Source: Candidatus Bathyarchaeia archaeon (lineage in GTDB: Archaea; Thermoproteota; Bathyarchaeia; 40CM-2-53-6). From it: a DNA stretch of 64,000 bases. The notes beneath the pieces were generated by a model, which was given only the letters and a program-made list of their open reading frames with translations, was not told the DNA's origin and did no database searches. Position 1 is the first letter of the stretch. Every line of letters starts with the position of its first letter. A program made the translations under genes and the position numbers. Shown piece by piece: positions 4,867 through 54,290 of this stretch. The stretch spans positions 32,001 through 96,000 of the forward strand of contig JBEKVV010000003.1 in assembly GCA_049513715.1 (NCBI GenBank), in the 5' to 3' direction.

Positions 4867-5085
4867 TTGGCCCAGACATTCCACCCCCAAGAAGGCGATG
4901 GAAGGAAAGCAGATCAATTGGGCCTAGTAGGGATCTACACTTGTCTCCTATGCGAAGAAAGCTTCAGCACGAAAGTTGAACTGAAGCTGCATTATTGCAG
5001 CGCGCATTGGGAATGCATACCCGACTATGAAGGTGGCAAGAATATCCACCCGTCGTCTCACTTATCCCCCGACCCTGTGGACTAA
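4867..5085 (+). CDS. Small protein with one classical C2H2 zinc finger
   Basis: CLLC-EES-F-STKVE-L-KL-H-YCSA-H fits C-x2-C-x3-F-x5-L-x2-H-x4-H. Confidence 0.65.
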   Translation: MAQTFHPQEGDGRKADQLGLVGIYTCLLCEESFSTKVELKLHYCSAHWECIPDYEGGKNIHPSSHLSPDPVD

Positions 5086-35056: not shown

Positions 35057-35238
35057 AACCGCAAAATGCTGTCTTAGTGATTTGACAGCATTAATCCCAG
35101 GCGAGATTTCGATCAAACTACGTTCGAAATGACTCGTTTTGTGTGTGAGTCTAGTGGTGCGAGCATCGTGATTTGAACCGTCAGTTCAGGCGTTATTTCG
35201 TGTGTGTGGGTATGCTGGTGCGTTGCTAAATTGGCATA

Positions 35239-35454
35239 TCATGGTTTCTCCACTCTCCGTTCCACCCTGACGTTGAGGTGGCCCGGATTGTCGGCTGCGA
35301 GTGGCGGCAAGAGGTGCGACAACAGTTGCTCTGCGCTGAGCCGGTGGACTATACCGGTTGGACCGGTTTGTGTCCAGCCGTTGTTCTCTTTGAGGTAGCT
35401 CCATGTCCGGCCACGTTTGGTTGTGATGTAAATCACGCAGTCAGTGTTCTTCAT
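35239..35454 (-). CDS. Small hypothetical protein
   Basis: ATG after GAGGT; lies between two repeat sites. Confidence 0.6.
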   Translation of the reverse strand: MKNTDCVIYITTKRGRTWSYLKENNGWTQTGPTGIVHRLSAEQLLSHLLPPLAADNPGHLNVRVERRVEKP

Positions 35455-35649
35455 GGCTTCTCCACTACCTCGAATTCCTTGTACTCCATGTCTTCCATCT
35501 TGTAGTCTATTCGGTTACAGGTATGCTGGTGCGCACACACACAATTACCGCATGAACTTCATTATGGTTGCTCTCATCGCTAGGCGCACGGGAAAAGGTG
35601 TTATTGATTGGTTCTTGAATTCATAGGTAGGACAGATGTGGTTCATCGG

Positions 35650-43646: not shown

Positions 43647-44205
43647 CGTTTCCACTTTTTTCTGTGCCGCTATTGACATACAGTGGGGTATATCAATGTT
43701 CTCCACATAGAACGTCATTGTTCCATATGGATTTCGAGACCCCTGATGGAAGAAAAGTCGCGGACAAATGACTGTCGCACTGTTACGAGCAATGAAATGA
43801 ATACGCATCAGGAAGAAGATTCACCGACCAGACCAACGTTTGGTTGGATTCTCGTTTGTGAAACTCAAAGTAGGCGACTGCGAGATTCCGGAACGATGCA
43901 ACTGACACAAATTCGTTTTTTCTCAAACCAAAATCTCCCTTCAAAGTTTCGCCGCCACATACTACGGTGGTTTATAAGCCTCGGCATATTTCGAAGACAC
44001 GAATCAAATCGGCTCTGATCCTTTTCCACGCCAGTCATTGGAACGGACTTCGACAAGCGGATTCCGTCAACACTTTCGTTCTAGGCACGAATTGCTTTCG
44101 AAGAGCGATTACAGATAAGGTGCAATCGCGATAACGAATCAGCGGCTCGCTCATGTTGAGCAACTGTTCACGAAGAGCGAATCAGGAAGCGGGATTGAAG
44201 ATATA

Positions 44206-44841
44206 GTGAGTATGATGCAAGCAAATCGTTTGTTGCCTTTGCTTACGGATTCGATCTTCATCGTACTCGCCCTTTATTTCGTGGTAACTTACACGCGTTC
44301 ACTGTGGATACCTCTGCAACAGCAAACGTTGCTTTTCTTGGTCCGTCAGACCTTCTTCTTGATTGTTCAGCTTATGGCGCTGGCTCTCTTTCTGGTAAGA
44401 AAGAGTGCGGTAAATTTCTCGTCGAAGATTGGTGATTATGTTTGGACTCTACTAGCGTTGGGTTTGCCGATGCTCCTTCGGCCAGTTCTTGGGTTTGCTC
44501 CTTCGATTGTCAGTTTTTCTCTGGAACTGATCGGGATAGTTCTGGTGCTGGGGGCGTTTTTGTCCCTGAATAGGAGTTTCGGTATTGCGCCTGAGAATCG
44601 GGGAATCAAAACGAAGGGCGTGTACCGTATCGTGCGTCACCCGATGTATTCGGGCTACCTTCTCACGGAAACCGGTTTCGTCCTCAGTAATTTCTCGCTC
44701 TACAACGTTCTCATTTTAGCGGCGGCTGCACTTTTTCTAGTACTAAGGCTAATGGCGGAGGAACGGTTCCTGAAAGAAGACCCAGCATACCTAACGTATG
44801 CTCATAAGACTCCTTGGAAGCTACTTCCCTTTATCTTCTGA
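44206..44841 (+). CDS. Isoprenylcysteine carboxyl methyltransferase/PEMT family membrane protein
   Basis: L.RSF...P....I.T.G.Y..VRHPMYSG, R...EERFL. Confidence 0.88.
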   Translation: MSMMQANRLLPLLTDSIFIVLALYFVVTYTRSLWIPLQQQTLLFLVRQTFFLIVQLMALALFLVRKSAVNFSSKIGDYVWTLLALGLPMLLRPVLGFAPSIVSFSLELIGIVLVLGAFLSLNRSFGIAPENRGIKTKGVYRIVRHPMYSGYLLTETGFVLSNFSLYNVLILAAAALFLVLRLMAEERFLKEDPAYLTYAHKTPWKLLPFIF

Positions 44842-44891
44842 AATGTGCTTCGATCCATCAATTGAAACTCAACTGGATCCGGTCGTAGTCA

Positions 44892-45668
44892 TCATTGTGG
44901 GATTGAAGCAGCAGGCTCCGCCGGTGAGGCGTATGCTAGGTTTTGGATGTAGATATCGCCTAACATGCAGATTTTGGGCGTGTAGAATGAGTTGCAATAC
45001 CAAGATGAAGGGATCACCAGCATCCCCGTTACGTTCGATACGTACGTGCCGTTCGGCGCGTTTGTCGAGAACGGGCTGCCGTCGGCGTTGAGGAGCCTGT
45101 AATACCGCGGTGGAGGATAGCAGGCCATTGAACCGGTGCAACCGACGCCGGGCGGAACGTAAAGGTATGTTAGAAGGAATGAAGGCGAACCGCACCGCGG
45201 GGAACATTGTGGGTTTTCCACTACTTCATAGATGTACCCGCTAGTTGTAATCGTCATGCCGCTGATTGTGGTTGACTGCTGCGTGGAACCGCTGATTACT
45301 GTTGCGCTTGTCTCAGTCGCGGTACCACTACCGTAACTAACGGATGCTGACATGATGGAAATCGAAACCACTCGGACTGCTGCCTTGCCCTGCATACAAT
45401 AGCTCGCTGCCTTACTGTCCAAGTAGCCGACCACCGTGACTTTGGTGCCAACAGGAGGATAATTAGACCAACCAATCAGGAGATATTGCGTTCCTCCCTC
45501 AGTGCGAAGGAGCATGCAGCCAGCCTCGACTCCTGACTCTAAAGTTCCTGTTACTGTAATAGAATTCGAATCGTTGTTGAGGAAAGAGACTGCGGAGGCG
45601 AAGTACAGACCAGCAATCAAACCCGAGAAGACGACAAGAACGGAAACAATCGCGGTCCGCCTATTCAA
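44892..45668 (-). CDS. N-terminally anchored Cys-rich surface protein
   Basis: N-terminal TM, GVEAGC.LL...G..Y.L...VTV.G..SYCMQG module, S/T linker, paired Cys. Confidence 0.7.
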   Translation of the reverse strand: MNRRTAIVSVLVVFSGLIAGLYFASAVSFLNNDSNSITVTGTLESGVEAGCMLLRTEGGTQYLLIGWSNYPPVGTKVTVVGYLDSKAASYCMQGKAAVRVVSISIMSASVSYGSGTATETSATVISGSTQQSTTISGMTITTSGYIYEVVENPQCSPRCGSPSFLLTYLYVPPGVGCTGSMACYPPPRYYRLLNADGSPFSTNAPNGTYVSNVTGMLVIPSSWYCNSFYTPKICMLGDIYIQNLAYASPAEPAASIPQ

Positions 45669-45948
45669 AGCTCATCCAGCATGGAAAGAGAGTGCACTGT
45701 GACGATAAATCTAGAGATTAGAACGGATCCATGTGTGGAACTCAGAAGATTAACCGTCAGATATGACTAATCTTTGAACCCCTCAGGAACCCCACTGCCA
45801 CGAAGGTATTCCAGTAAGCAATCAGAAGTAGTGATATGAGCTGTAAATCCCTCAGCCAAAATGCCTCACTGCGGAAGAGAAATCGAAAATGTGTTTACTG
45901 CAACCTTAGTGGGATTCGTTTGAGCTCCTAACCCTAAAGAAGACCAAC

Positions 45949-47829
45949 ATGCCCCTACGAATCTTCCAGCGAGAAGGAGGACAGAAGCAATTGACAACGG
46001 ACATGAACATGGCCTGGCTTGTAGACGCCTCATATCGAGGAGGACAAGTGAATCTCAAGCTCATTCGGACAACTGATCTCGAACCTATTCAGTGGAGCGA
46101 TTCCAACTTCAAACCTTACTACCTAACTTATGATGAGCAGTACGGTGAACCTGTCAAGAAACTCAACCTTTTTGCAGGCAACGAAGTGAAACTTCAGAAG
46201 GTCTCCTACTATGAGAGACCGCCAAAGAATACCCAAGGCTGGGAGTTGGACATCGACCCGGCGCTCAGTTACGTTTACGATAGAGGACTTGTCTTCGGCG
46301 TTCCGCATTGTTTTGAGAACGGTGCTTGGTTGCCGCAAATTTCCATAGCCGACGAGCAGCTTACTCGATTTGAAGAGCTCTTCGGGGAAATCAAAGCTAA
46401 GGATCCTTTGAAGTTCGCTTTGGTGAAGGAGGCGTACGCTTATGCGGCGCAACCGGTTCCGCGAATCAAGCCGGAAAATCTTGGCCTTTCGGGTGGTTCT
46501 GAGGAGGATTACTACAACGCTTTCCTACTGAGCCGTATCGCGAACCTGCCAGTATCCAAAACCTACAGAAACTACTCCGTCTCCGAATGGATTCGCTCAA
46601 TGCTCTACACCTACTATCGAGCCCACAACATTCTCATTCCGACCCCTGAAGAGCTGAAACTTGGCGATACAAGGAAATACGTAACGGGCGCGCTCACGAT
46701 TGCCCCCGAGTCAGGGACCTATTTCAACATGTACGTGCTCGACTTCGAGTCCCTCTACCCAGGCTGCATTGACACTTTCAACCTTTCCTACGAAACTGTA
46801 CGGTGCCTCCACTCTGAATGCCAACGGAACCTAGTTCCGGGTCTAGATTACAATATCTGCACTAGGCGACGTGGAATCTACTCCGCCCTCACAGGAGCCC
46901 TACGCGACCTTCGCTTACGAGTCTTCAAACCTCTCACCAAAGCGAACCCGTCAAGTACAGACAAGAACATGGCCGCAGCCTCTCGCATTCTCAAACTGTT
47001 CCTAGTCTCATGTTTCGGAGTGACCGTTCGAATCAAAGGTCTAGCAAGCCCTCTTCTAGGTGAGGCGATCACAGCGTACGGACGTTACGTTTTGCAGTCG
47101 ACGTGGGATATGGCCAAGGACGCAGACCTCAAACCAAAGTACGGCGACACTGACTCGGTTTTTCTTGACAACCCGCTGGAGCAAGATGTGAGACAATTCA
47201 TCCAGGCGGTTAAGAACCGGTTCGACCTGCAATTGGCGTTTGACCGCGTTTACTCGGTTTGCGTTCTAAGTGCTGCCAAGAAAGCATACTTCGGCATCCT
47301 ACCAAACGGAGAGCCCGAAATCAAAGGGTTGTCGATTGCGAAATCCAACTCCCCCAGATTCTTCCAACGAACATTCCAAAACTGCCTCAACAGACTCTCC
47401 AAAGGGCGCCGCTCCGCCAGCGACTTTGAGTTAGCTAAGAAGCAACTGCCCGACGTGGTTGGGGGGGCGATTCACGAACTTCGAAACGGGAGTGTCGACT
47501 TGTCGGACCTTGAGTACCGAGTCGAACTGCGAGATGACCCACAAGAGAAAGCGCGATCGAAGACACTTCCGCAACCGTACCAAGCGGCCTGGCTTCTTTC
47601 AAAGGAAGGAAAGAAAATCTCCAGGGGAGAGGTTGTGGGTTTCGTTAAGGTTAGACCTTTCAAGGTTCAAGGAAGGCAGTATACCGTAAAACCGACTACA
47701 CAAACAGACCCGAGAGAGATCAATGTGAACGACTATGTTCGAAACCTCATCTCTTCGCTGTCCCAAACCTTCGAGCCCATGGGACTCAGCCTCGACATGC
47801 CCGAAACCAGCCTTTCGCGATTCCTGTAA
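45949..47829 (+). CDS. Family B DNA polymerase, PolB1-like, lacking the 3'-5' exonuclease domain
   Basis: DFESLYP, NLSYETVRC.H..C, LRDLR, YGDTDS, KKAY.G, IKGL; only about 245 aa before the polymerase core. Confidence 0.88.
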   Translation: MPLRIFQREGGQKQLTTDMNMAWLVDASYRGGQVNLKLIRTTDLEPIQWSDSNFKPYYLTYDEQYGEPVKKLNLFAGNEVKLQKVSYYERPPKNTQGWELDIDPALSYVYDRGLVFGVPHCFENGAWLPQISIADEQLTRFEELFGEIKAKDPLKFALVKEAYAYAAQPVPRIKPENLGLSGGSEEDYYNAFLLSRIANLPVSKTYRNYSVSEWIRSMLYTYYRAHNILIPTPEELKLGDTRKYVTGALTIAPESGTYFNMYVLDFESLYPGCIDTFNLSYETVRCLHSECQRNLVPGLDYNICTRRRGIYSALTGALRDLRLRVFKPLTKANPSSTDKNMAAASRILKLFLVSCFGVTVRIKGLASPLLGEAITAYGRYVLQSTWDMAKDADLKPKYGDTDSVFLDNPLEQDVRQFIQAVKNRFDLQLAFDRVYSVCVLSAAKKAYFGILPNGEPEIKGLSIAKSNSPRFFQRTFQNCLNRLSKGRRSASDFELAKKQLPDVVGGAIHELRNGSVDLSDLEYRVELRDDPQEKARSKTLPQPYQAAWLLSKEGKKISRGEVVGFVKVRPFKVQGRQYTVKPTTQTDPREINVNDYVRNLISSLSQTFEPMGLSLDMPETSLSRFL

Positions 47830-48289
47830 CTGCCATCTTGCTTTGAGTGTGTCCGCCCTTGTCAGCGTGTATGCCGCCCTCTCATGGGTGGCTGCCGCCC
47901 ACCCCCCCTTGTTACGGTGCGGGGCACGTGTTCATGGGTGCGGGAGGCTCGTGGAGCATGCCTGACGCTTTCGTTTAGTAATGGGCCACAAAACTGCCCT
48001 ACAGCCCCCCACCCCACACCTAACAATAATAGAAAAGGTGGGCCACACCTGAGAGTGGGTGTACTCCACCCGCGAGGGAGTGGACCCCACCCAATGCCTC
48101 GCCAGTCCAAGAGAATACGTCTGTCCAAGCTGTGCATTTCCGATGCATAACCCGTGATATTCTTCGCATGTATCGCGCGAACCAAGCTTCTAGGAGACAA
48201 GAGCTTCCGCGCGTAGCTTGCATAGCGCGGCGGTTGCGGAAGCCAGCGCCGTGGAGGGTCATTTTTGGATACTTCCTAACAGGAAGGCG

Positions 48290-48352
48290 GTTTTGTGTGG
48301 TTCTTGTGTGTGCACGCAAACGAGAACAAGAAACTCGACGGTTCAAATCTCA
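48290..48352 (+). repeat. Degenerate copy of the tRNA-end-derived site
   Basis: TTCTTGTGTGTGC...ACAAGAAAC followed by GACGGTTCAAATC, as at 52050-52090. Confidence 0.5.
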
Positions 48353-48464
48353 CTTGTCCCCTGTTTCGTCGGGTTTGATGCCTATTTCTGACCTCAGTTC
48401 GTTCCATTTGGTTTTCGCCTTCGACCAAAGCATTATCTCATTTGCTGATTGTTATCCAGTTCGA

Positions 48465-49265
48465 ATGACTTTGATCGACCATCGAAAAATCGTCGAGTCG
48501 ATTGTCAAGACGATTGAGAATGAGGAAAGTGTGCAGGGCGTCTTTCTCTCGGGTTCCCTAATCAATGAGAGCAAGGATCAGTTTTCAGACATCGACCTCG
48601 GAATCGTCTCAGTCAACAGCCAGGAAGCCTTCGAGAAGTCGTACTCACTGCGGCACGGTATCATCGAAGCTGTCGGTAAGCCGATTGACTCCTTGGAGCG
48701 CGGCTGGGAAAACTGCAAGATGATGACGGCACTCTATGGCAGGACGCAATTTCCCCCTCTTGGGCTCGAAGTTGATGTAATCTTCAGTCAACTCCGTCAT
48801 GTCTCCGAGCAGATACCGTATGCGGATTATGAGATCGTATTTGATAGGTCTGGGATGCTAAGACAGGCACTGGCCAAGCTTAGCCGTAGGAAACCCAAGG
48901 AAGAAGTCCAGAAGGAAATCCGACTGCACCTAACCAGTTGCCCCTTCTATGTTCATGACGCGCTCAAAGCGCATGAAAGAGGAGATTCACCGCCATTCCA
49001 CATGTTGCTAAATGAAATTCGAAAGCTAGTCTTCTTTGCTGCGGCTGCAAGCAGAGACCAGCAGGTGTACGGATCCAAACGTGGACTGAAATATCTCTCA
49101 GCGAGTGAGCGGCTCTCTTTCGAGTCATCATACTATGGTTTCAACAAGGGCACGGTTCAGAAGCTGACCGACCTTTACGTGGCGAAGCTGAAGGAGTTGG
49201 AGGTGCGTTATCAGGTTGTGCCTGACGTGGAAAAATTTCAGAGAACGTTGAAAGAACTCCTCTGA
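48465..49265 (+). CDS. Pol-beta superfamily nucleotidyltransferase (aminoglycoside/lincosamide NTase-like)
   Basis: LSGS......D.FSDIDL, EVD, FDRSG, helical C-terminal domain; start at ATG 48465. Confidence 0.8.
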   Translation: MTLIDHRKIVESIVKTIENEESVQGVFLSGSLINESKDQFSDIDLGIVSVNSQEAFEKSYSLRHGIIEAVGKPIDSLERGWENCKMMTALYGRTQFPPLGLEVDVIFSQLRHVSEQIPYADYEIVFDRSGMLRQALAKLSRRKPKEEVQKEIRLHLTSCPFYVHDALKAHERGDSPPFHMLLNEIRKLVFFAAAASRDQQVYGSKRGLKYLSASERLSFESSYYGFNKGTVQKLTDLYVAKLKELEVRYQVVPDVEKFQRTLKELL

Positions 49266-49353
49266 GCGGGATAAATGGATAATCACCCCCCCCCAGGGGG
49301 GGACCCTAACTTGAACCACCATCTCCCGCGTATGTGGCCAGAATGATGCTGGC

Positions 49354-51294
49354 TCAGACTTTGAGATGTTGCGTAAAGAATTCCGTGATTCGATTGTAGC
49401 ACGTTACTCTGTTGTTGAATTTTATGACGTCGTGGCCTTCATCTTCAAAGACCAAGTAATCCACAGGTATGCCTCGAGACCGCAACCGTTCAACGACATC
49501 AGCGGTCTCTCTTTCGACGACGCGTGGGTCATTGCGGCCTTGAATCATGAGCATCGGGCACTTGACATGATCAATGTGCACGAAGGGAGAGCGCTCTAGG
49601 AGGAAATCTTTGTCCTTCTGGGGGTCACCAATACTCAAGACAAAGCTTGTGCGCCAGGTTGGAGGCAGCCGTTCCATGAAAGTAATCAGATTGTATGGTC
49701 CGAACATATCAACGCCAGCACTCCAGAGGTTCGGGAATCTTGAAACTAAGGTTAATGTCATGTATCCGCCGTAGGACCTGCCGATTACAGCTCGCTTGGT
49801 GGAGTCGATGCGGTTATCCTTTTCAAGTATCTTCAATCCCTCGACCTGGTCCAACGCGTCATTTCCTCCCCAGTCATGGTCAACCATCTTCATGAACTTC
49901 AACCCGTAGCCGGTGCTTCCTCGAACATTGGGTACGAAGACTGCGAAACCGTTCAGTGTTAGGTATTGGATGAGAGGCATAGAGAACCATGTGAAGTCAG
50001 GTTTCTCTTGGCCCTGAGGTCCTCCATGAACGTAGAGCACGAGCGGGTATGGTTCTTTCAGGCCAAGTGCCTTCGAGGGTAGGTAGAGGCGTGCGCTTAT
50101 CCGTAGGCCATCGAAGCTCTTGAAGCTGGCATCCTCGCCATGGGACAGGTATTTTTCGTCGATTCCTAGCACTCGTTCCGATGATAAGACCGAGTATTTC
50201 CTCTGCTTGGTGGCCCCTGGGTTGAAGAGGTAGAGCTGGGATGGACTTATGGCCTTCGTGAAGGAGAAGGCGTATCCAACCTTTCCCCTCTTTCTAGGTT
50301 CGATAACCCAAGGTTCGATTCCAAGTACGACACCATCCGATGTTGGTGGTTTCCCGACGATTGTCTCTTCAATAGTGAACCGAGGCTTCGAGCCGTCATG
50401 GTACGTTCCCTCGTAAATCCAAGAACAGCCGTCAATGTTGTATTGCAATAGATGTTGATTCCCTTGGACCTTGCGTACATCCACGAGTTCTCCGGCACCC
50501 TTGTGCTTGATTCCGCTTATAGGAACGGGCACGAGTCGAGAAGGATCATCAATTCGAAGATAGGCTAGTGAGCCATTATCGTGGAGCAGAGTGGTCGTGA
50601 ATAGAATGCCCCGCCCGCTCTCAGTGAAGTTGCATCTGGCTATTCCAGATGGAGCGTATTCCTTGTTCTCCTGCCGTTTGTCAATGGGTACGCCGAAGAA
50701 CAGCTCTCGTCTTTCTGTGCCCTCCTTCCAAAGGTATAGAACATTGTCAGCAGCCGTATATCCATCAATCAGAATCACCCGCGAGTGACCTTTGTTGGTT
50801 CCCGCGCAGTAGTTGCCATAGATACTAGTACCGAGCGATGTCTCCCCAAAGGTTTCCAACTCGACTTTGAGGCATTCTATGTCCGGGGTCTTCCTGTCGT
50901 CGCGGTAAAAGTATGCAATGCTTGCATCTCTGTCGTAATGTATGCAGGCAAGTTGCTGCTTCTGATATTTCTCTCCGAAAATCGATTGAGGAATTCCTCC
51001 TTGTAGGGGTATGAAGCAGGGTTGGTAGTTCTCGTCTCCATTGTTGTCTATCATCACCAGAATTCTTTCCAACTTAGGGAAGACGACGAAAGATTCCCCA
51101 ATCATCAAGTGCGGGTTCTGGAGCGCAATTCCTGAAGGCAACAAAGGCTCCGGGAGGCTTCCGTCCCTACTCATGCGATAGAGGCTGATAGCACCACTTG
51201 AATCGCTCAAGAAGTACAAATAATCGTCGACCAATTGTGGCGAAAGCAAACGCCTAGCCGACAGCAAGGATTCTAACGGAAACTTGCTAGTCAA
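49354..51294 (-). CDS. S9 family peptidase (acylaminoacyl/prolyl oligopeptidase)
   Basis: VHGGP, PNVRGSTGYG, GRSYGG, NDPRV, DEGH. Confidence 0.93.
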   Translation of the reverse strand: MTSKFPLESLLSARRLLSPQLVDDYLYFLSDSSGAISLYRMSRDGSLPEPLLPSGIALQNPHLMIGESFVVFPKLERILVMIDNNGDENYQPCFIPLQGGIPQSIFGEKYQKQQLACIHYDRDASIAYFYRDDRKTPDIECLKVELETFGETSLGTSIYGNYCAGTNKGHSRVILIDGYTAADNVLYLWKEGTERRELFFGVPIDKRQENKEYAPSGIARCNFTESGRGILFTTTLLHDNGSLAYLRIDDPSRLVPVPISGIKHKGAGELVDVRKVQGNQHLLQYNIDGCSWIYEGTYHDGSKPRFTIEETIVGKPPTSDGVVLGIEPWVIEPRKRGKVGYAFSFTKAISPSQLYLFNPGATKQRKYSVLSSERVLGIDEKYLSHGEDASFKSFDGLRISARLYLPSKALGLKEPYPLVLYVHGGPQGQEKPDFTWFSMPLIQYLTLNGFAVFVPNVRGSTGYGLKFMKMVDHDWGGNDALDQVEGLKILEKDNRIDSTKRAVIGRSYGGYMTLTLVSRFPNLWSAGVDMFGPYNLITFMERLPPTWRTSFVLSIGDPQKDKDFLLERSPFVHIDHVKCPMLMIQGRNDPRVVERETADVVERLRSRGIPVDYLVFEDEGHDVIKFNNRVTCYNRITEFFTQHLKV

Positions 51295-51518
51295 GGCATA
51301 TTCCTTCTCGATTTCCCACAGTGAACGCGCAGATGTTTACGCCTTTCTGAGTCTCAACGCCCCCTGTACACGGCAACAACCACGCCGAAAAACTCCGCTC
51401 GGTCTTCGCCTGCAGGGGGGTGTGCACACCGCCAGACCCAACAGGCCATCACACACACTAACAACAAACAACAGAACACAAATTGCCGTTTGTTTCTTGT
51501 GTGAGCGCACCAATGGAC

Positions 51519-51980
51519 TTACACACCCAGGAACGGTTGGTGGAGATTCAAGTTGTAGAGGCGGCGGTCGCTTTGAAGGAAGCCTATGGAACGCCAGAAT
51601 ACTGGGGCCAACTCGTTGGTGGGCAATACTTCTAGACTGACCTGCTCAGTCTTCGTTGCTTTTGCCTCTGCGATGAGGCGGGCGGCGAGGGCATGGCCTA
51701 CACCCTTGCGGCGGGAATCCGGATTCACAAAGAAGTCTTGGATTATTAGCATTCTGCCGAACTCCGCAGAAGGCAGATAGAATGCGAACGCCACGCCAAC
51801 GATCACTGTCTTCTCCCGTGCCACCAGGATCAGCCCCGATGATTCATTCTGCAACAGTTGGTCTACAGCCCAAGCGATCTTCTCATGGTTAGGCCTCAGT
51901 CCTTCAGAAGCGTGGTAGGTTGCTATCATTTGCTCGACCTCACTTCGATCAGTAGGAGATGGTCTCTCGATGACGATCAT
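51519..51980 (-). CDS. GNAT family N-acetyltransferase
   Basis: DFFV.P..RRKGVG, LEV...N..A..FW..IGF. Confidence 0.88.
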   Translation of the reverse strand: MIVIERPSPTDRSEVEQMIATYHASEGLRPNHEKIAWAVDQLLQNESSGLILVAREKTVIVGVAFAFYLPSAEFGRMLIIQDFFVNPDSRRKGVGHALAARLIAEAKATKTEQVSLEVLPTNELAPVFWRSIGFLQSDRRLYNLNLHQPFLGV

Positions 51981-52226
51981 GTGCTATGTCAGATTGTGAA
52001 AGGTCATCGGAACGGATTTAGTTTTTGTGTGTGTGGGTGTAGTGGTGCGCACACACACAAGAAAACGCTTGAACTGACGGAGCAAATTACGATGCCCGCA
52101 CCATCAGTGCACATACACGAAAACCGGCGTCGTTCATGTAATTTTGTGCGTATCCAAATTCCAACAGAACCGTAAAGTACATTTGTGTGCGATCGTGATG
52201 CATTTTCGGAGTTGTGTGTTTGAGCA

Positions 52227-52862
52227 ATGGGGAATGAAGTACTGGATGCCATTATGCAGCGACGCAGTATCTATCAGTTCAAGCCTGAGGCAGTCCCTAT
52301 TGAGAAGATTACTTCCATTTTGGAGGCGGGTCGTTGGGCTCCGTCATATGCGAATAGTCAGCCATGGGAATTCATTACTGTAACTGATAGCAAATTGAAG
52401 GAGGAGGTTGTCGAGATAGCGAAGGAAACTATGGCTGCGCATGCAGGAATAGAAGGAGCGCACGCAATCATCGCAACATGTGTGGATCCCGAGAAAGATC
52501 AATACCACTTCATTGAAGACGGTGCTGTAGCAACACAGAACATGGCTCTGGCAGCACATAGCCTGGGGCTAGCGACCTATTGGGTCGGGATATTGAGTTC
52601 TACGAACGATAGGAAATCAGTCGAGCATAGAATCAAGGAGGTCCTGAACATACCTGAAAGGATGCGCTTGATTTCTTTGTTGCCCGTGGGTGTGCCTGCA
52701 TATAGTGTAGAGAAGCAAAGAAAGCGGTTGGAGCAGATTTGCCACATTGACAAGTATGGCAGCAGACCATCAGGTGTGGGAGTAGAGGATCAGGGCAACA
52801 AGACAGAGATGGAAGCACCGAGACATGGAATGAGAGCACAATTGCCCACCACACCAACTTGA
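52227..52862 (+). CDS. Nitroreductase family protein
   Basis: RRSI..F, APS.ANSQPWEF, QNM.LAA.SLGL.T.W. Confidence 0.92.
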   Translation: MGNEVLDAIMQRRSIYQFKPEAVPIEKITSILEAGRWAPSYANSQPWEFITVTDSKLKEEVVEIAKETMAAHAGIEGAHAIIATCVDPEKDQYHFIEDGAVATQNMALAAHSLGLATYWVGILSSTNDRKSVEHRIKEVLNIPERMRLISLLPVGVPAYSVEKQRKRLEQICHIDKYGSRPSGVGVEDQGNKTEMEAPRHGMRAQLPTTPT

Positions 52863-53333
52863 TTGAGTGGATCATGAGCCAACGTCAGGAGAAGACTGGA
52901 CTTGGAACTTATTCTATGCAAGTCTAGCATTAAGGAGATTCATCGAAGACCTGAAGAAAGATAACAACTAGGTCCCTTCGAACGAGTGAGATCCGAAGCC
53001 TAGCAGACCTAGAGCCTGTATTAGAGGACGCGCATCCTTGGACAGTCTAAGAAGTCCTTTCCATCGTATTGACTGAAAGTTGGGTTCTTTGTTCTTTCCG
53101 GAATTGCCGAACATTCGACGCAACAAACCATGTCTCAATGGGCAGATTGAGAATGCTTACAAGCACGAGGGGAATTGCGATCCATACGAATCCTAGCCCC
53201 ACAAGTCCGAATCCTATAGGAAGCAAGACCGTTAGGTTTCCAGTCTCTTGGGGAGGGTACCAATGGTGCGCACCCACGAACCCACTTCCAACACCTGGGT
53301 CGCGCTTGAACAACAGCTACATCAAATTGCGGA

Positions 53334-53882
53334 CTAAATCATTATGGCGGCCGCGATTGCTGTCGTCCACAGTCCGTCTTTGTTGCCTTCCACCGATTGG
53401 CAAATGCTTCTGGTAGTAACCCTCTTGCCAGATATGTTCCATATCTCTTGCTTGATGTCCCAGGCGTTGTCGACGTCAAACGGCACACCGTATGTCGACG
53501 CGAGCATTGATGCAGCCAGATCTTCCGCATAGTCACCAGCTCTCTCCTGAGTCTGACCGTACGACTTGTGTTCAGAAAGGTAACCATACAAGGTCCGGTC
53601 ATTCGGCATTGCCATTCCTACGGATGTAGCGATCAACCTATTGGGTTCATTTGTGTCGATGCGACTCATCACGCAGAACAGGATCTGACCAGGTTTCAAT
53701 AGCGCCAAGCCCTCGTTCTTGGACAACACCGTGCAGTTTGGAGGCAAGATACTTGACACGTAAACTAGGTTGCAGGAGGCGATTCCCGCGTCGCGAAGAG
53801 CTAATTCGAAACTCGCCAATCTTTCTTTGTGAGTACCCACACCTTTTGTGAGGAATATCTTCTCAGGTATGTGAGCGTTCAT
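53334..53882 (-). CDS. pdaD: Pyruvoyl-dependent arginine decarboxylase
   Basis: SFELALRDAGI...NLV.VSSILPP self-cleavage site, YGYLSEH, WTT..AA. Confidence 0.92.
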   Translation of the reverse strand: MNAHIPEKIFLTKGVGTHKERLASFELALRDAGIASCNLVYVSSILPPNCTVLSKNEGLALLKPGQILFCVMSRIDTNEPNRLIATSVGMAMPNDRTLYGYLSEHKSYGQTQERAGDYAEDLAASMLASTYGVPFDVDNAWDIKQEIWNISGKRVTTRSICQSVEGNKDGLWTTAIAAAIMI

Positions 53883-54162
53883 CTGAAATTCTGGTCCACA
53901 GTGTTTCTCAGACATTCTTGAAGATTGTCATCGCCTATGATATGTCTCGCGCATTCAAGCAGTTTTCGTGTAGGTGCGCACCATTGATACCCCCCCAGAA
54001 CCACTAATACTCGAGAAGCAACGATGCCTTGGCGAGAATACACGGCGCCCACTTCTCACTTCTTTTTCCTACCTTTCATCCACGTGTGACGCGCTTTAGT
54101 TATTCGCGGAAATACTTCGAAAAGAAGCGATTGCCAGAGGTCGATTTTGTGTGTGGGTCCAG

Positions 54163-54290
54163 TGGTGCGGCCGCCGGGATTTGAACCCGGGCGTCTCCTC
54201 GCCTTTTTGGGGCGATCAGAAGCGTGGCAGGCTTACGTCAGCAGACCAATGTCGCTGTTCCCGTCCTAGACCAGGCTAGACTACGGCCGC
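54163..54290 (-). tRNA. tRNA-Gly(GCC) with two introns (29/30: 54233-54258; 45/46: 54193-54216), CCA encoded
   Basis: Removing 26- and 24-nt BHB-bounded inserts gives a 78-nt cloverleaf: GCGGCCG/CGGCCGC, stem GGAGC/GCTTC, loop CT-GCC-AC; CTTTAAAT box upstream. Confidence 0.92.

Follow-up and report, generated by a model that had tools for sequence, protein, structure and literature searches.

Sites resembling a tRNA 3' end lie at the edges of accessory gene modules in a peat-soil Bathyarchaeia archaeon

What are the short sites that separate single accessory genes beside a tRNA-Gly gene of Bathyarchaeia, and do the genes between them move? We addressed this question in a stretch of 64,000 nucleotides (hereafter the window, C3:32001-96000) from the genome of a peat-soil Bathyarchaeia archaeon, G000 (2.79 Mb, 11 contigs, 99.4% complete). 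An original prediction, made from the letters of the window, described six sites of alternating orientation with a core taken from the tRNA 3' end, which bracket an acetyltransferase gene of the GNAT family, a nitroreductase gene and the arginine decarboxylase gene pdaD, and interpreted them as a system of gene capture or shuffling. Our analysis confirms the observation and partly supports the interpretation. We propose that the sites are the junction points of a module or cassette exchange system spread through Bathyarchaeia, a reading to which we assign a probability of roughly 0.55.

All six sites were recovered at the predicted places, with the predicted cores and strands, and their orientation alternates strictly along the window. 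With window positions as coordinates and the parts given in the order left arm, core, spacer and right arm, S1 spans 51493..51528 on the forward strand (core 51506-51512; TTTCTTGTGTGAG / CGCACCA / ATGGAC / TTACACACCC; profile E 1.3e-4). S2, which has the full palindromic form, spans 52022..52065 on the reverse strand (core 52043-52049; TTTTCTTGTGTGTGTG / CGCACCA / CTACAC / CCACACACAC AAAAA; profile E 1.4e-9). A degenerate linker that resembles a tRNA 3' fragment (52066..52096, +) connects it to S3 (52097..52123, +, core 52097-52103; CGCACCA / TCAGTG / CACATACAC GAAAA), the left side of which is of the tRNA-fragment type. Further downstream lie S4 (53250..53285, -, core 53264-53270; GTGGGTTCGTGGGTG / CGCACCA / TTGGTA / CCCTCCCC; profile E 0.069) and S5 (53963..53996, +, core 53977-53983; TTTTCGTGTAGGTG / CGCACCA / TTGATA / CCCCCCC; profile E 0.05). 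S6 (54145..54169, -, core 54163-54169; profile E 3.6) is the tRNA-Gly 3' end itself, CGCACCA / CTGGAC / CCACACACAAAA. The heptamer CGCACCA is the sole part common to all six sites and also forms the 3' end of tRNA-Gly(GCC); the predicted identity between core and tRNA end therefore exists, over seven bases and not eight.

The motif GCGCACCA is found in 8 copies in the window, compared to 2.12 +/- 1.37 expected, and none of 100 shuffles reached 8. A site profile built from 31 genomic copies did not report S3 and scored S4, S5 and S6 poorly, so that these four of the six sites are weak when taken singly and rest on their context. The imperfect inverted arms that were predicted around the asymmetric core are strong in S2 and characterize a minority of the window sites: when the arms were folded as single-stranded DNA, only S2 of the six beat its shuffles (z -3.3; S1, z 0.0), and S4, S5 and S6 had no arm hairpin. 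The right arm of S4 is C-rich and has no complementarity to its left arm. S4 and S5 share GGTGCGCACCATTGRTACCC and the C-rich right arm and are closer to each other than to the consensus; the claim that they are near-identical inverted copies over the whole 40 bp did not survive. The stop codon of the GNAT gene (51519-51521) is the opening triplet of the right arm of S1, and so lies inside a site arm, as had been noticed.

The tRNA gene in question (54163..54290, -) encodes its CCA and is interrupted twice, by insertions of 34 and 25 nt. It matches Rfam RF00005 at 54166-54290 on the reverse strand (42.4 bits against a cut-off of 29, E 4.8e-8), and its anticodon loop, CUGCCAC, identifies it as tRNA-Gly(GCC). 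Both ARAGORN with default settings and the Rfam scan of the whole window had overlooked it.

When copies of the site were used to scan the genome and its relatives, as the original prediction had proposed, a family of about 90 sites emerged in G000 that is also widespread in relatives. The genome carries 121 copies of GCGCACCA, and its frequent frame consists of TTTT-n-GTGTGTGTG, CGCACCA, six bases (most often CTAGAC), CCACACACAC and AAAA. A motif scan returned 96 raw hits, reduced to 91 sites after filtering. Both arms are present in 29 of the raw hits, only the left arm in 14 and only the right arm in 53. In about 34 of these 53, the left side is instead a 30-45-nt portion of a tRNA 3' part, from the T-loop to the CCA (GGTTCAAATT-nnnn-TGCYCGCACCA); the T-stem is not kept and the 5' ends of the fragments always abut an arm. 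GTGTGTG and CACACAC lie 12-20 bases apart 41 times in this genome and occur once in the opposite order, and T-runs precede the arms on both strands. Among 55 T-arm-like matches, which include the real tRNA genes, only two tRNAs have an arm directly after the CCA, namely the tRNA-Gly of the window and a tRNA on contig C1 that ends in TGCTCGCACCA.

The sites avoid genes and cluster where the assembly breaks. Only 4 out of 91 lie deep in open reading frames (ORFs) of at least 150 aa, compared to a random mean of 60.7 (minimum 47), and 36 out of 91 are within 10 kb of a contig end (7.5% expected). The cargo near them is typical accessory content, including GNATs, glyoxalases, isochorismatase, nitroreductases, SnoaL, methyltransferases and KaiC-like ATPases.

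The first indication that the modules move comes from their distribution. The flanked genes are accessory and differ between species, in agreement with the original prediction: the GNAT gene, between S1 and S2 (51519..51980, -; Pfam PF00583, E 1.2e-11), has no match at E<=1e-15 in 22 congeners, and close copies of the nitroreductase were detected in 3 of the 22 (91, 88 and 68% amino acid identity), with more distant family members in 18. The nitroreductase module (52110..52899, +; ORF 52227-52862, identified by Pfam) has been exchanged recently between species. Its DNA is 93.3% identical over 792 nt in congener G014 and 91.0% identical over 788 nt in G032, compared to 72-78% across the genus for a neighbouring core gene. 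The flanks of the module differ in G000, G014 and G032; in all three the homology begins at the arm CACACACAC, followed by AAAACCGG, and in the window the shared stretch begins at the right arm of S3. The edges of homology are located at site arms. The expectation that module boundaries coincide with sites is thus borne out as far as the homology edges lie on sites; the edge that is shared is an arm and not the core, which faces either way.

Two further observations concern how modules arrive. Within G000, three pairs of duplicates start or end at arms. In G028, a 648-bp SnoaL-like cassette, which brings inverted CGACGACG arms of its own, is flanked by direct 13-base repeats of core plus spacer (CGCACCAAGGTAC), and the whole is located inside a site with outer GT/CA arms. 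This is the expected outcome if a circle with one site recombined with another site within the core. Spacers also match across an arginase module (C5 167006 and 168047) and across the pair C3 67216/67527.

The DNA next to the tRNA-Gly gene provides the second line of evidence. The pair formed by this tRNA and the PEP synthase gene is kept in 8 relatives. In G018, G033, G013 and G014, the orthologues of window 27.6-31.7 and 36.9-42.2 kb reach the tRNA without any gene of window 43.85-54.16 kb in between. Because these genes are missing from the syntenic locus of four relatives, about 10.3 kb downstream of the tRNA 3' end (43850..54162) is species-specific, while the flanks stay syntenic. This G000-specific island encodes a 211-aa ORF, DUF5818, an accessory family-B DNA polymerase (PolB), a nucleotidyltransferase, an S9 peptidase, the GNAT, the nitroreductase and pdaD; sites divide only its final 2.7 kb. 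S6 forms its tRNA-proximal edge.

The exact point of insertion can be seen by comparing trailers. In G033, the tRNA-Gly trailer has no arm and reads CGCACCA+TCAGAC followed by unrelated sequence; in the window it reads CGCACCA+CTGGAC followed by CCACACACAAAA. The spacer therefore looks like the own trailer of the tRNA, and the foreign DNA begins with the arm. An NNAGAC-like hexamer is present in four of the nine tRNA-Gly trailers compared, two of which have no inserted arm; G016 has NNAGAC, G018 has AGAC one base off register, and the remainder are more divergent. The insert begins after CCA plus six bases and leaves the tRNA gene intact. G013 and G014 carry another one-gene insert at the same tRNA end, the far side of which is a degenerate inverted site and the ORF of which is 88-94% identical to a gene elsewhere in G000. 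A species-specific island in one genome and a different insert in two others support the tRNA-Gly 3' end as a hot spot of insertion.

The alternating layout of the window resembles dif modules, and to this extent the prediction holds; orientation is mixed genome-wide. Gene-holding intervals between neighbouring sites in G000 are of the types +- (17), ++ (10), -- (8) and -+ (3), and intervals shorter than 150 bp are -+ (9) or direct (9) and never +-. In the wider set of loci, intervals with GT-type inner arms are +- 51 times, -- 37 times, ++ 28 times and -+ 21 times. Alternation is therefore a tendency and not a rule. The short -+ junctions begin with an inverted full site, which AAAA and a linker connect to a tRNA fragment; this fragment forms the next site. 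S2-S3 is one such junction. Doublets of (-)(+) type, about 100 bp long and with 23-bp terminal inverted repeats, occur 9 times in G000.

To see how far the sites have spread, we searched the exact 14-mer GTGTGTGCGCACCA. Of the 18 congeners searched, 17 contain it, and so do 3 of 12 genomes from the rest of the order, while a control with the reversed pattern gave no match in all genomes searched. Exact copies number 19 in G018, 20 in G007 and 11 each in G028 and G030, which belong to two other families; the spacer of G028 is nearly uniform (AGGTAC). A scan of one genome per prokaryotic species returned 112 stretches, and among the 80 that were listed nearly all are in Bathyarchaeia or Bathyarchaeota records. 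Exact full sites were also observed on short contigs from bins of Acidoferrum, Methylomirabilota, Terriglobia and Dehalococcoidia (L119/L120, L130, L139, L152, L185), which are probably mis-binned archaeal contigs. Metagenome contigs add at least 125 stretches with sites, many of them at contig ends; none of 79 metagenome loci has the terminal repeats of a circular contig. A viral or plasmid source of attP was rejected, with 0 hits of the strict pattern in IMG/VR and 25 matches to a 15-mer that have no right half of the site and look like chance.

A mechanism that could link these observations starts from a site of three parts. The invariant core CGCACCA reads as the end of the acceptor stem, the discriminator base and CCA; the 6-base spacer varies with the lineage and is usually NNAGAC in this genus; and the arms are simple repeats, as a rule TTTT(GT)n to the left of the core and (CA)nAAAA to its right. 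Stretches of about 0.4-2 kb, most of them holding one or two accessory genes, would have been inserted at such cores, first at the genuine 3' ends of tRNA-Gly and one further tRNA, and afterwards at the roughly 90 dispersed copies of the site. We infer that a trans-acting enzyme may recognise the tRNA-end-like core and cut there or at the border between arm and core, and that modules between inverted sites may move when two molecules join at one site and separate at another, or by flipping.

A number of observations weigh against this proposal, and they concern the geometry of the exchanges, the state of the locus in the population and the enzyme. The core that meets the end of the nitroreductase cargo is forward in G000 and G014 but reverse in G032, and the duplicate pair C10 20029 / C1 896011 also has the core in either direction; at least some exchanges must therefore have occurred within the arms, as plain homologous recombination would give. 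Arms can be of GT, CGT or G-rich type, and the types on the two sides of a cargo are mostly unmatched (1 matched CGT pair against many mixed ones). The spacers of neighbouring direct sites agree in only 2 of about 25 pairs. Near 43.85 kb, the distal edge of the island has no recognisable site or repeat, and its first 7.6 kb holds none. The edges of a second G000-specific insertion (31.74 and 36.88 kb) have no sites either, and three sites lie inside it.

We also looked at 24 sequencing runs (Logan contigs), which possibly include the source of this DNA and none of which is recorded as RNA. The contigs of four runs (2017-2020) show one stable arrangement for this strain, and inverted or circular junctions, which the original prediction had led us to look for, were not detected in them; the DNA studied here may itself come from these runs, and rare variants are lost in contigs. 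In a low-depth variant contig of 340 nt, an inverted site adjoins the nitroreductase module, which is the arrangement of G032. Since this contig has 5 base differences and a 7-base insertion, we took it as the copy of a relative and not as a flip within the strain. In the same samples, other organisms' versions of the tRNA-Gly gene swap a 71-nt stretch (window 54191-54263) for 21-40 different bases, and one of them gives an anticodon arm that reads UCC; the insertions of this tRNA therefore vary between relatives.

The search for the enzyme gave no candidate that follows the sites. We searched G000 for six families (PF00589, PF01797, PF00239, PF01867, PF01548 and PF16795). Five PF00589 matches were found, two of them above the cut-off, and none is next to sites apart from one small integrase element, beside another tRNA, that lies 3-6 kb from the C5 site cluster; integrated elements with integrases next to tRNAs are located at C5 218.6 kb and C3 166 kb. 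The genome has no match to Y1 transposase (PF01797, the Y1/RAYT family, 0 matches), serine recombinase, Cas1, IS110 transposase or SSV-type integrase. In G018, G007, G028, G006 and G011, all of which have sites (G018 is 98% and G028 96% complete), PF00589 gave no match at E<=0.001, and these genomes are consequently devoid of a recognisable XerA. This speaks against the predicted involvement of a tyrosine recombinase or XerA, as genomes with 11-20 exact copies have no PF00589 match. Among the 1744 ORFs near sites in all sets fetched, the four integrases of G000 match only themselves. No recombinase-like gene recurs near sites, either by Pfam on 148 ORFs of G000 and 70 of G028 or by clustering of ORFs in three sets. 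Pfam returned no integrase in 43.85-54.16 kb, and the remark that none is visible in the window stands, with no recombinase gene in cis.

The commonest gene near sites encodes a diverged single-domain KaiC-like ATPase of 230-300 aa (for example L058:2376-3167 (-), L067:2509-3210 (+) and L053:7239-7982 (-)), with 14 members in 5 genomes and 15 of the 579 ORFs in genome-contig loci. In the pooled set these ATPases merge into one cluster of 50 members from 36 loci, and their best solved relatives are PH0284 and PH0186. We treated them as cargo, although they may have a role in the exchange. Another family that had appeared as an enriched candidate, of beta-propeller type, turned out to consist of secreted NHL-repeat proteins.

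Which other explanations could account for the sites? The main rival, unlikely in our judgement, holds that they are a selfish, non-autonomous repeat of the kind of REP (repetitive extragenic palindromic) elements or MITEs (miniature inverted-repeat transposable elements), which enters intergenic DNA in variable regions and whose copies offer short portable homology, so that ordinary homologous recombination exchanges or inverts the intervening genes without a dedicated cassette recombinase. The arm-level edges of homology and the failure to find an enzyme aid this view and weaken the one we favour. The shared edge of modules is an arm with the core either way, cargos combine arms of mixed types, no recombinase was found to follow the sites, the sites are intergenic and near contig ends, and there are nine doublets of about 100 bp with 23-bp terminal inverted repeats. 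Other results speak against it: G000 has no Y1/RAYT-type transposase and no DDE transposase recurs near sites; target-site duplications were not seen around the doublets, though no systematic search was made; and the empty palindromic target GTGTGTG-CACACAC with a gap of 0-4 bases occurs 0 times in G000. Two further observations oppose this rival. The tRNA end is itself one partner, with insertion exactly after the spacer, and the 13 bases of core plus spacer that are directly repeated on either side of the G028 cassette are better explained by a staggered or site-specific event than by homology between 9-base arms.

Quite unlikely, in our view, is that the sites are att scars (attL, attR and hybrids) left by successive integrase-encoding elements in tRNA genes and later reshaped by decay and inversions. 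About 34 copies do carry 30-45 nt of a tRNA 3' part, like displaced att fragments, the island is located at a tRNA 3' end, the integrated elements at C5 218.6 kb and C3 166 kb do exist, and archaeal integrases are reported to cause inversions (PMC8371274). Scars of this kind are difficult to reconcile with about 90 sites against 2 PF00589 matches over the cut-off, with a spacing of about one gene, and with 11-20 exact copies in genomes that have no PF00589 match. Exact core and arms are kept across genera together with lineage-specific spacers, unlike decaying scars; the fragments have lost the T-stem and have 5' ends that always abut an arm; and the nitroreductase moved alone, in a one-gene module that contains no integrase. 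It is highly improbable that the sites act in transcription, as a two-way terminator or as an operator bound by a protein, and are kept for that function, their place at gene borders being incidental. T-runs before arms on both strands, the position of sites between genes, the GNAT stop codon within an arm and the strong hairpin of S2 are what such a signal would show, but the sites are nearly confined to variable islands and contig ends and not spread across operons, they occur at 5' and 3' gene ends alike, most window copies have no hairpin, and tRNA-fragment copies, hybrid arms and homology edges are left unexplained.

We rejected three simpler models of how the sites recombine. A symmetric crossover at the palindrome GTGC/GCAC, considered as the origin of the inverted cores, should leave palindromic junctions; in the genome we counted 0 arm-arm palindromes (GTGTGCGCACAC) and 1 head-to-head palindrome (TGGTGCGCACCA), which does not exceed the counts of control palindromes. 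A model in which (GT)n(CA)n palindromes without an insert serve as targets was discarded because none exist. A simple transposon with cassette-specific inverted arms and a 13-base target duplication fits only the G028 locus L101 and two pairs in G000, and fails for the nitroreductase module and most cargos. The genome's sole head-to-head junction of two cores (TGGTGCGCACCA) is at C3:422002-422041, 10-40 bases downstream of a tRNA-Pro gene (C3 421836-421988).

Returning to the reading of the sites as junctions of cassette exchange, its furthest version would have Bathyarchaeia run a chromosomal cassette exchange of their own, with a site that imitates the tRNA 3' end, an enzyme outside all recombinase and transposase families searched, and relocation also of housekeeping genes such as pdaD. 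We consider this version possible, if doubtful. The enzyme could then represent a family not yet recognised, or it could be a protein able to recognise the ends of tRNAs that was recruited to this role.

Comparison with known systems places the sites closest, in layout, to the dif modules of Acinetobacter; they also resemble integrons and are a member of neither, as every testable defining feature of these two families fails or is undecided here. In PMC13141974, Rep_3/OrfX plasmids of Acinetobacter are described with dif modules bounded by alternating pdif sites of 28 bp, each with distinct 11-bp XerC and XerD arms and a 6-bp spacer, and a single module between inverted sites is proposed to move when molecules join at one site and separate at another. 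The two systems share modules of one or few accessory genes between short alternating sites in two phases, with either one or the other side of the site turned inward, which the six window sites show and for which the likeness drawn by the original prediction holds, a recombinase that is not encoded in the modules, and inversions and deletions between sites as expected side reactions. The sites described here differ in having a 7-bp core and a 6-bp spacer between like-looking simple-repeat arms, 12-20 bases apart, which are reverse complements of one repeat; because the arms are alike on both sides, a module can sit in either phase. They differ also in being chromosomal and archaeal, in deriving from a tRNA 3' end and in their mixed orientation genome-wide, and no Xer-type enzyme tracks them, so that recombination by XerC/XerD (XerA) is not supported.

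Integrons with canonical attC sites and IntI are reported in Archaea (PMC9668308), in a paper whose main text does not contain the string 'Bathyarchae'. Integrons have in common with our loci the arrays of mostly single-gene cassettes, the imperfectly palindromic sites with a short conserved core, the many arrays without a nearby integrase, like CALINs, and the classes of cargo (acetyltransferases, glyoxalases, oxidoreductases). In contrast, no tyrosine recombinase is beside the arrays here, although the IntI-specific domain itself was not searched; there is no R''/L''/L'/R' layout, the core is CGCACCA and not GTTRRRY, and only S2 of the window sites folds; site and gene orientation are mixed; and arrays are at many loci, some begun at a tRNA end instead of attI.

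Repeats and integrative elements offer two further comparisons. REP, BIME and REPIN elements of bacteria are short intergenic palindromic repeats associated with RAYT transposases. The present sites share with them tens to hundreds of copies, often as inverted doublets, and differ from them in the lack of a Y1/RAYT gene, in the tRNA-end core and in copies that are concentrated in accessory islands and coincide with places where exchanged genes begin or end. As in MITEs, the ends of the (-)(+) doublets are inverted repeats, of 23 bp, with no duplications or related transposase seen, the duplications not having been searched systematically. Krupovic et al. in 2019 are said to have dealt with archaeal tRNA-targeting integrative elements and 'gene capture'. 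A review of tRNA-targeting integrative elements of archaea (PMC8371274) describes docking at the tRNA 3' end, displaced 3' fragments and islands downstream of tRNAs, all of which are seen here. Different from these elements are the single-gene units without an integrase of their own and the roughly 90 copies of the site away from tRNAs, in both orientations and with 7-13 bases of identity; their direct att repeats with an integrase have no counterpart, since the distal edge has no repeat and the internal sites are inverted. As far as we searched the literature, we found no description of these sites.

The remaining features of the window add to this description. Between the nitroreductase module and S4 lies a stretch (52900..53249) that includes an 88-aa ORF (53047-53313, -) with no Pfam match. 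The pdaD gene (pyruvoyl arginine decarboxylase; 53334..53915, -; Pfam PF01862, PvlArgDC, E 2.8e-59) is single-copy in G000 and sits between the left-arm sides of S4 and S5. Its protein is 79-88% identical across 10 congeners, compared to 77-81% for the neighbouring PEP synthase, and its neighbourhood is different in each of the 4 relatives whose neighbours were compared; no directly flanking site was found in any of 8 loci scanned in relatives. Most of the pdaD matches in relatives have one in-frame stop close to the 5' end, which is probably an upstream stop before a shorter start. The accessory PolB (45949-47829, +; 626 aa) is the fourth paralogue of this family, with no exonuclease part recognisable by Pfam. 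It is 64-73% identical in 7 of the 22 congeners, the remaining ones holding only paralogues of 26-37% identity, and in G002 (C69) it is again found between sites. Three more members of the site family, all on the reverse strand, occupy 35155..35540 (cores 35155, 35216 and 35527) inside the second G000-specific insertion (about 31.74-36.88 kb); those at 35216 and 35527 are the pair C3 67216 and 67527 and have the common spacer GCATAC.

Three observations were made outside the window. A second dispersed repeat, TTCAGAGATGGGGCAGGGGATTTCAACCCCAATTTACCGGTACATATAA, was found genome-wide in G000 in about 40 copies (for example L064:325-375, 1880-1930 and 4877-4927); the window was not scanned for it. 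Some of its copies start with the 3' end, in reverse complement, of the tRNAs whose last bases are CCCCCGCACCA, and 12 of the 40 are at most 300 bp from a CGCACCA site. A radical-SAM gene (L060:230-1306, G000 C5:3729-4805) matches as two pieces about 1 kb apart in G014, G004, G011, G001 and G007, which suggests an insertion or an intron-like element in these genomes. In G028, a bacteriorhodopsin-like ORF (L107:5833-6477; PF01036, E 3e-29) has a site about 340 bp away.

Bathyarchaeia are among the most abundant archaea of soils and sediments. To our knowledge, none of their members has a genetic system, and how they acquire accessory genes is largely unexplained. A conserved site of about 40 bases would make it possible to read their accessory gene pool directly in metagenomes, by amplification or assembly from one site to the next, in the way already used for integron cassettes. 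It would also give a handle for finding a new recombination enzyme and, possibly, a docking point for future genetic tools. The layout of modules between alternating sites, described so far for plasmids of Acinetobacter, would thereby have an independent counterpart on archaeal chromosomes.

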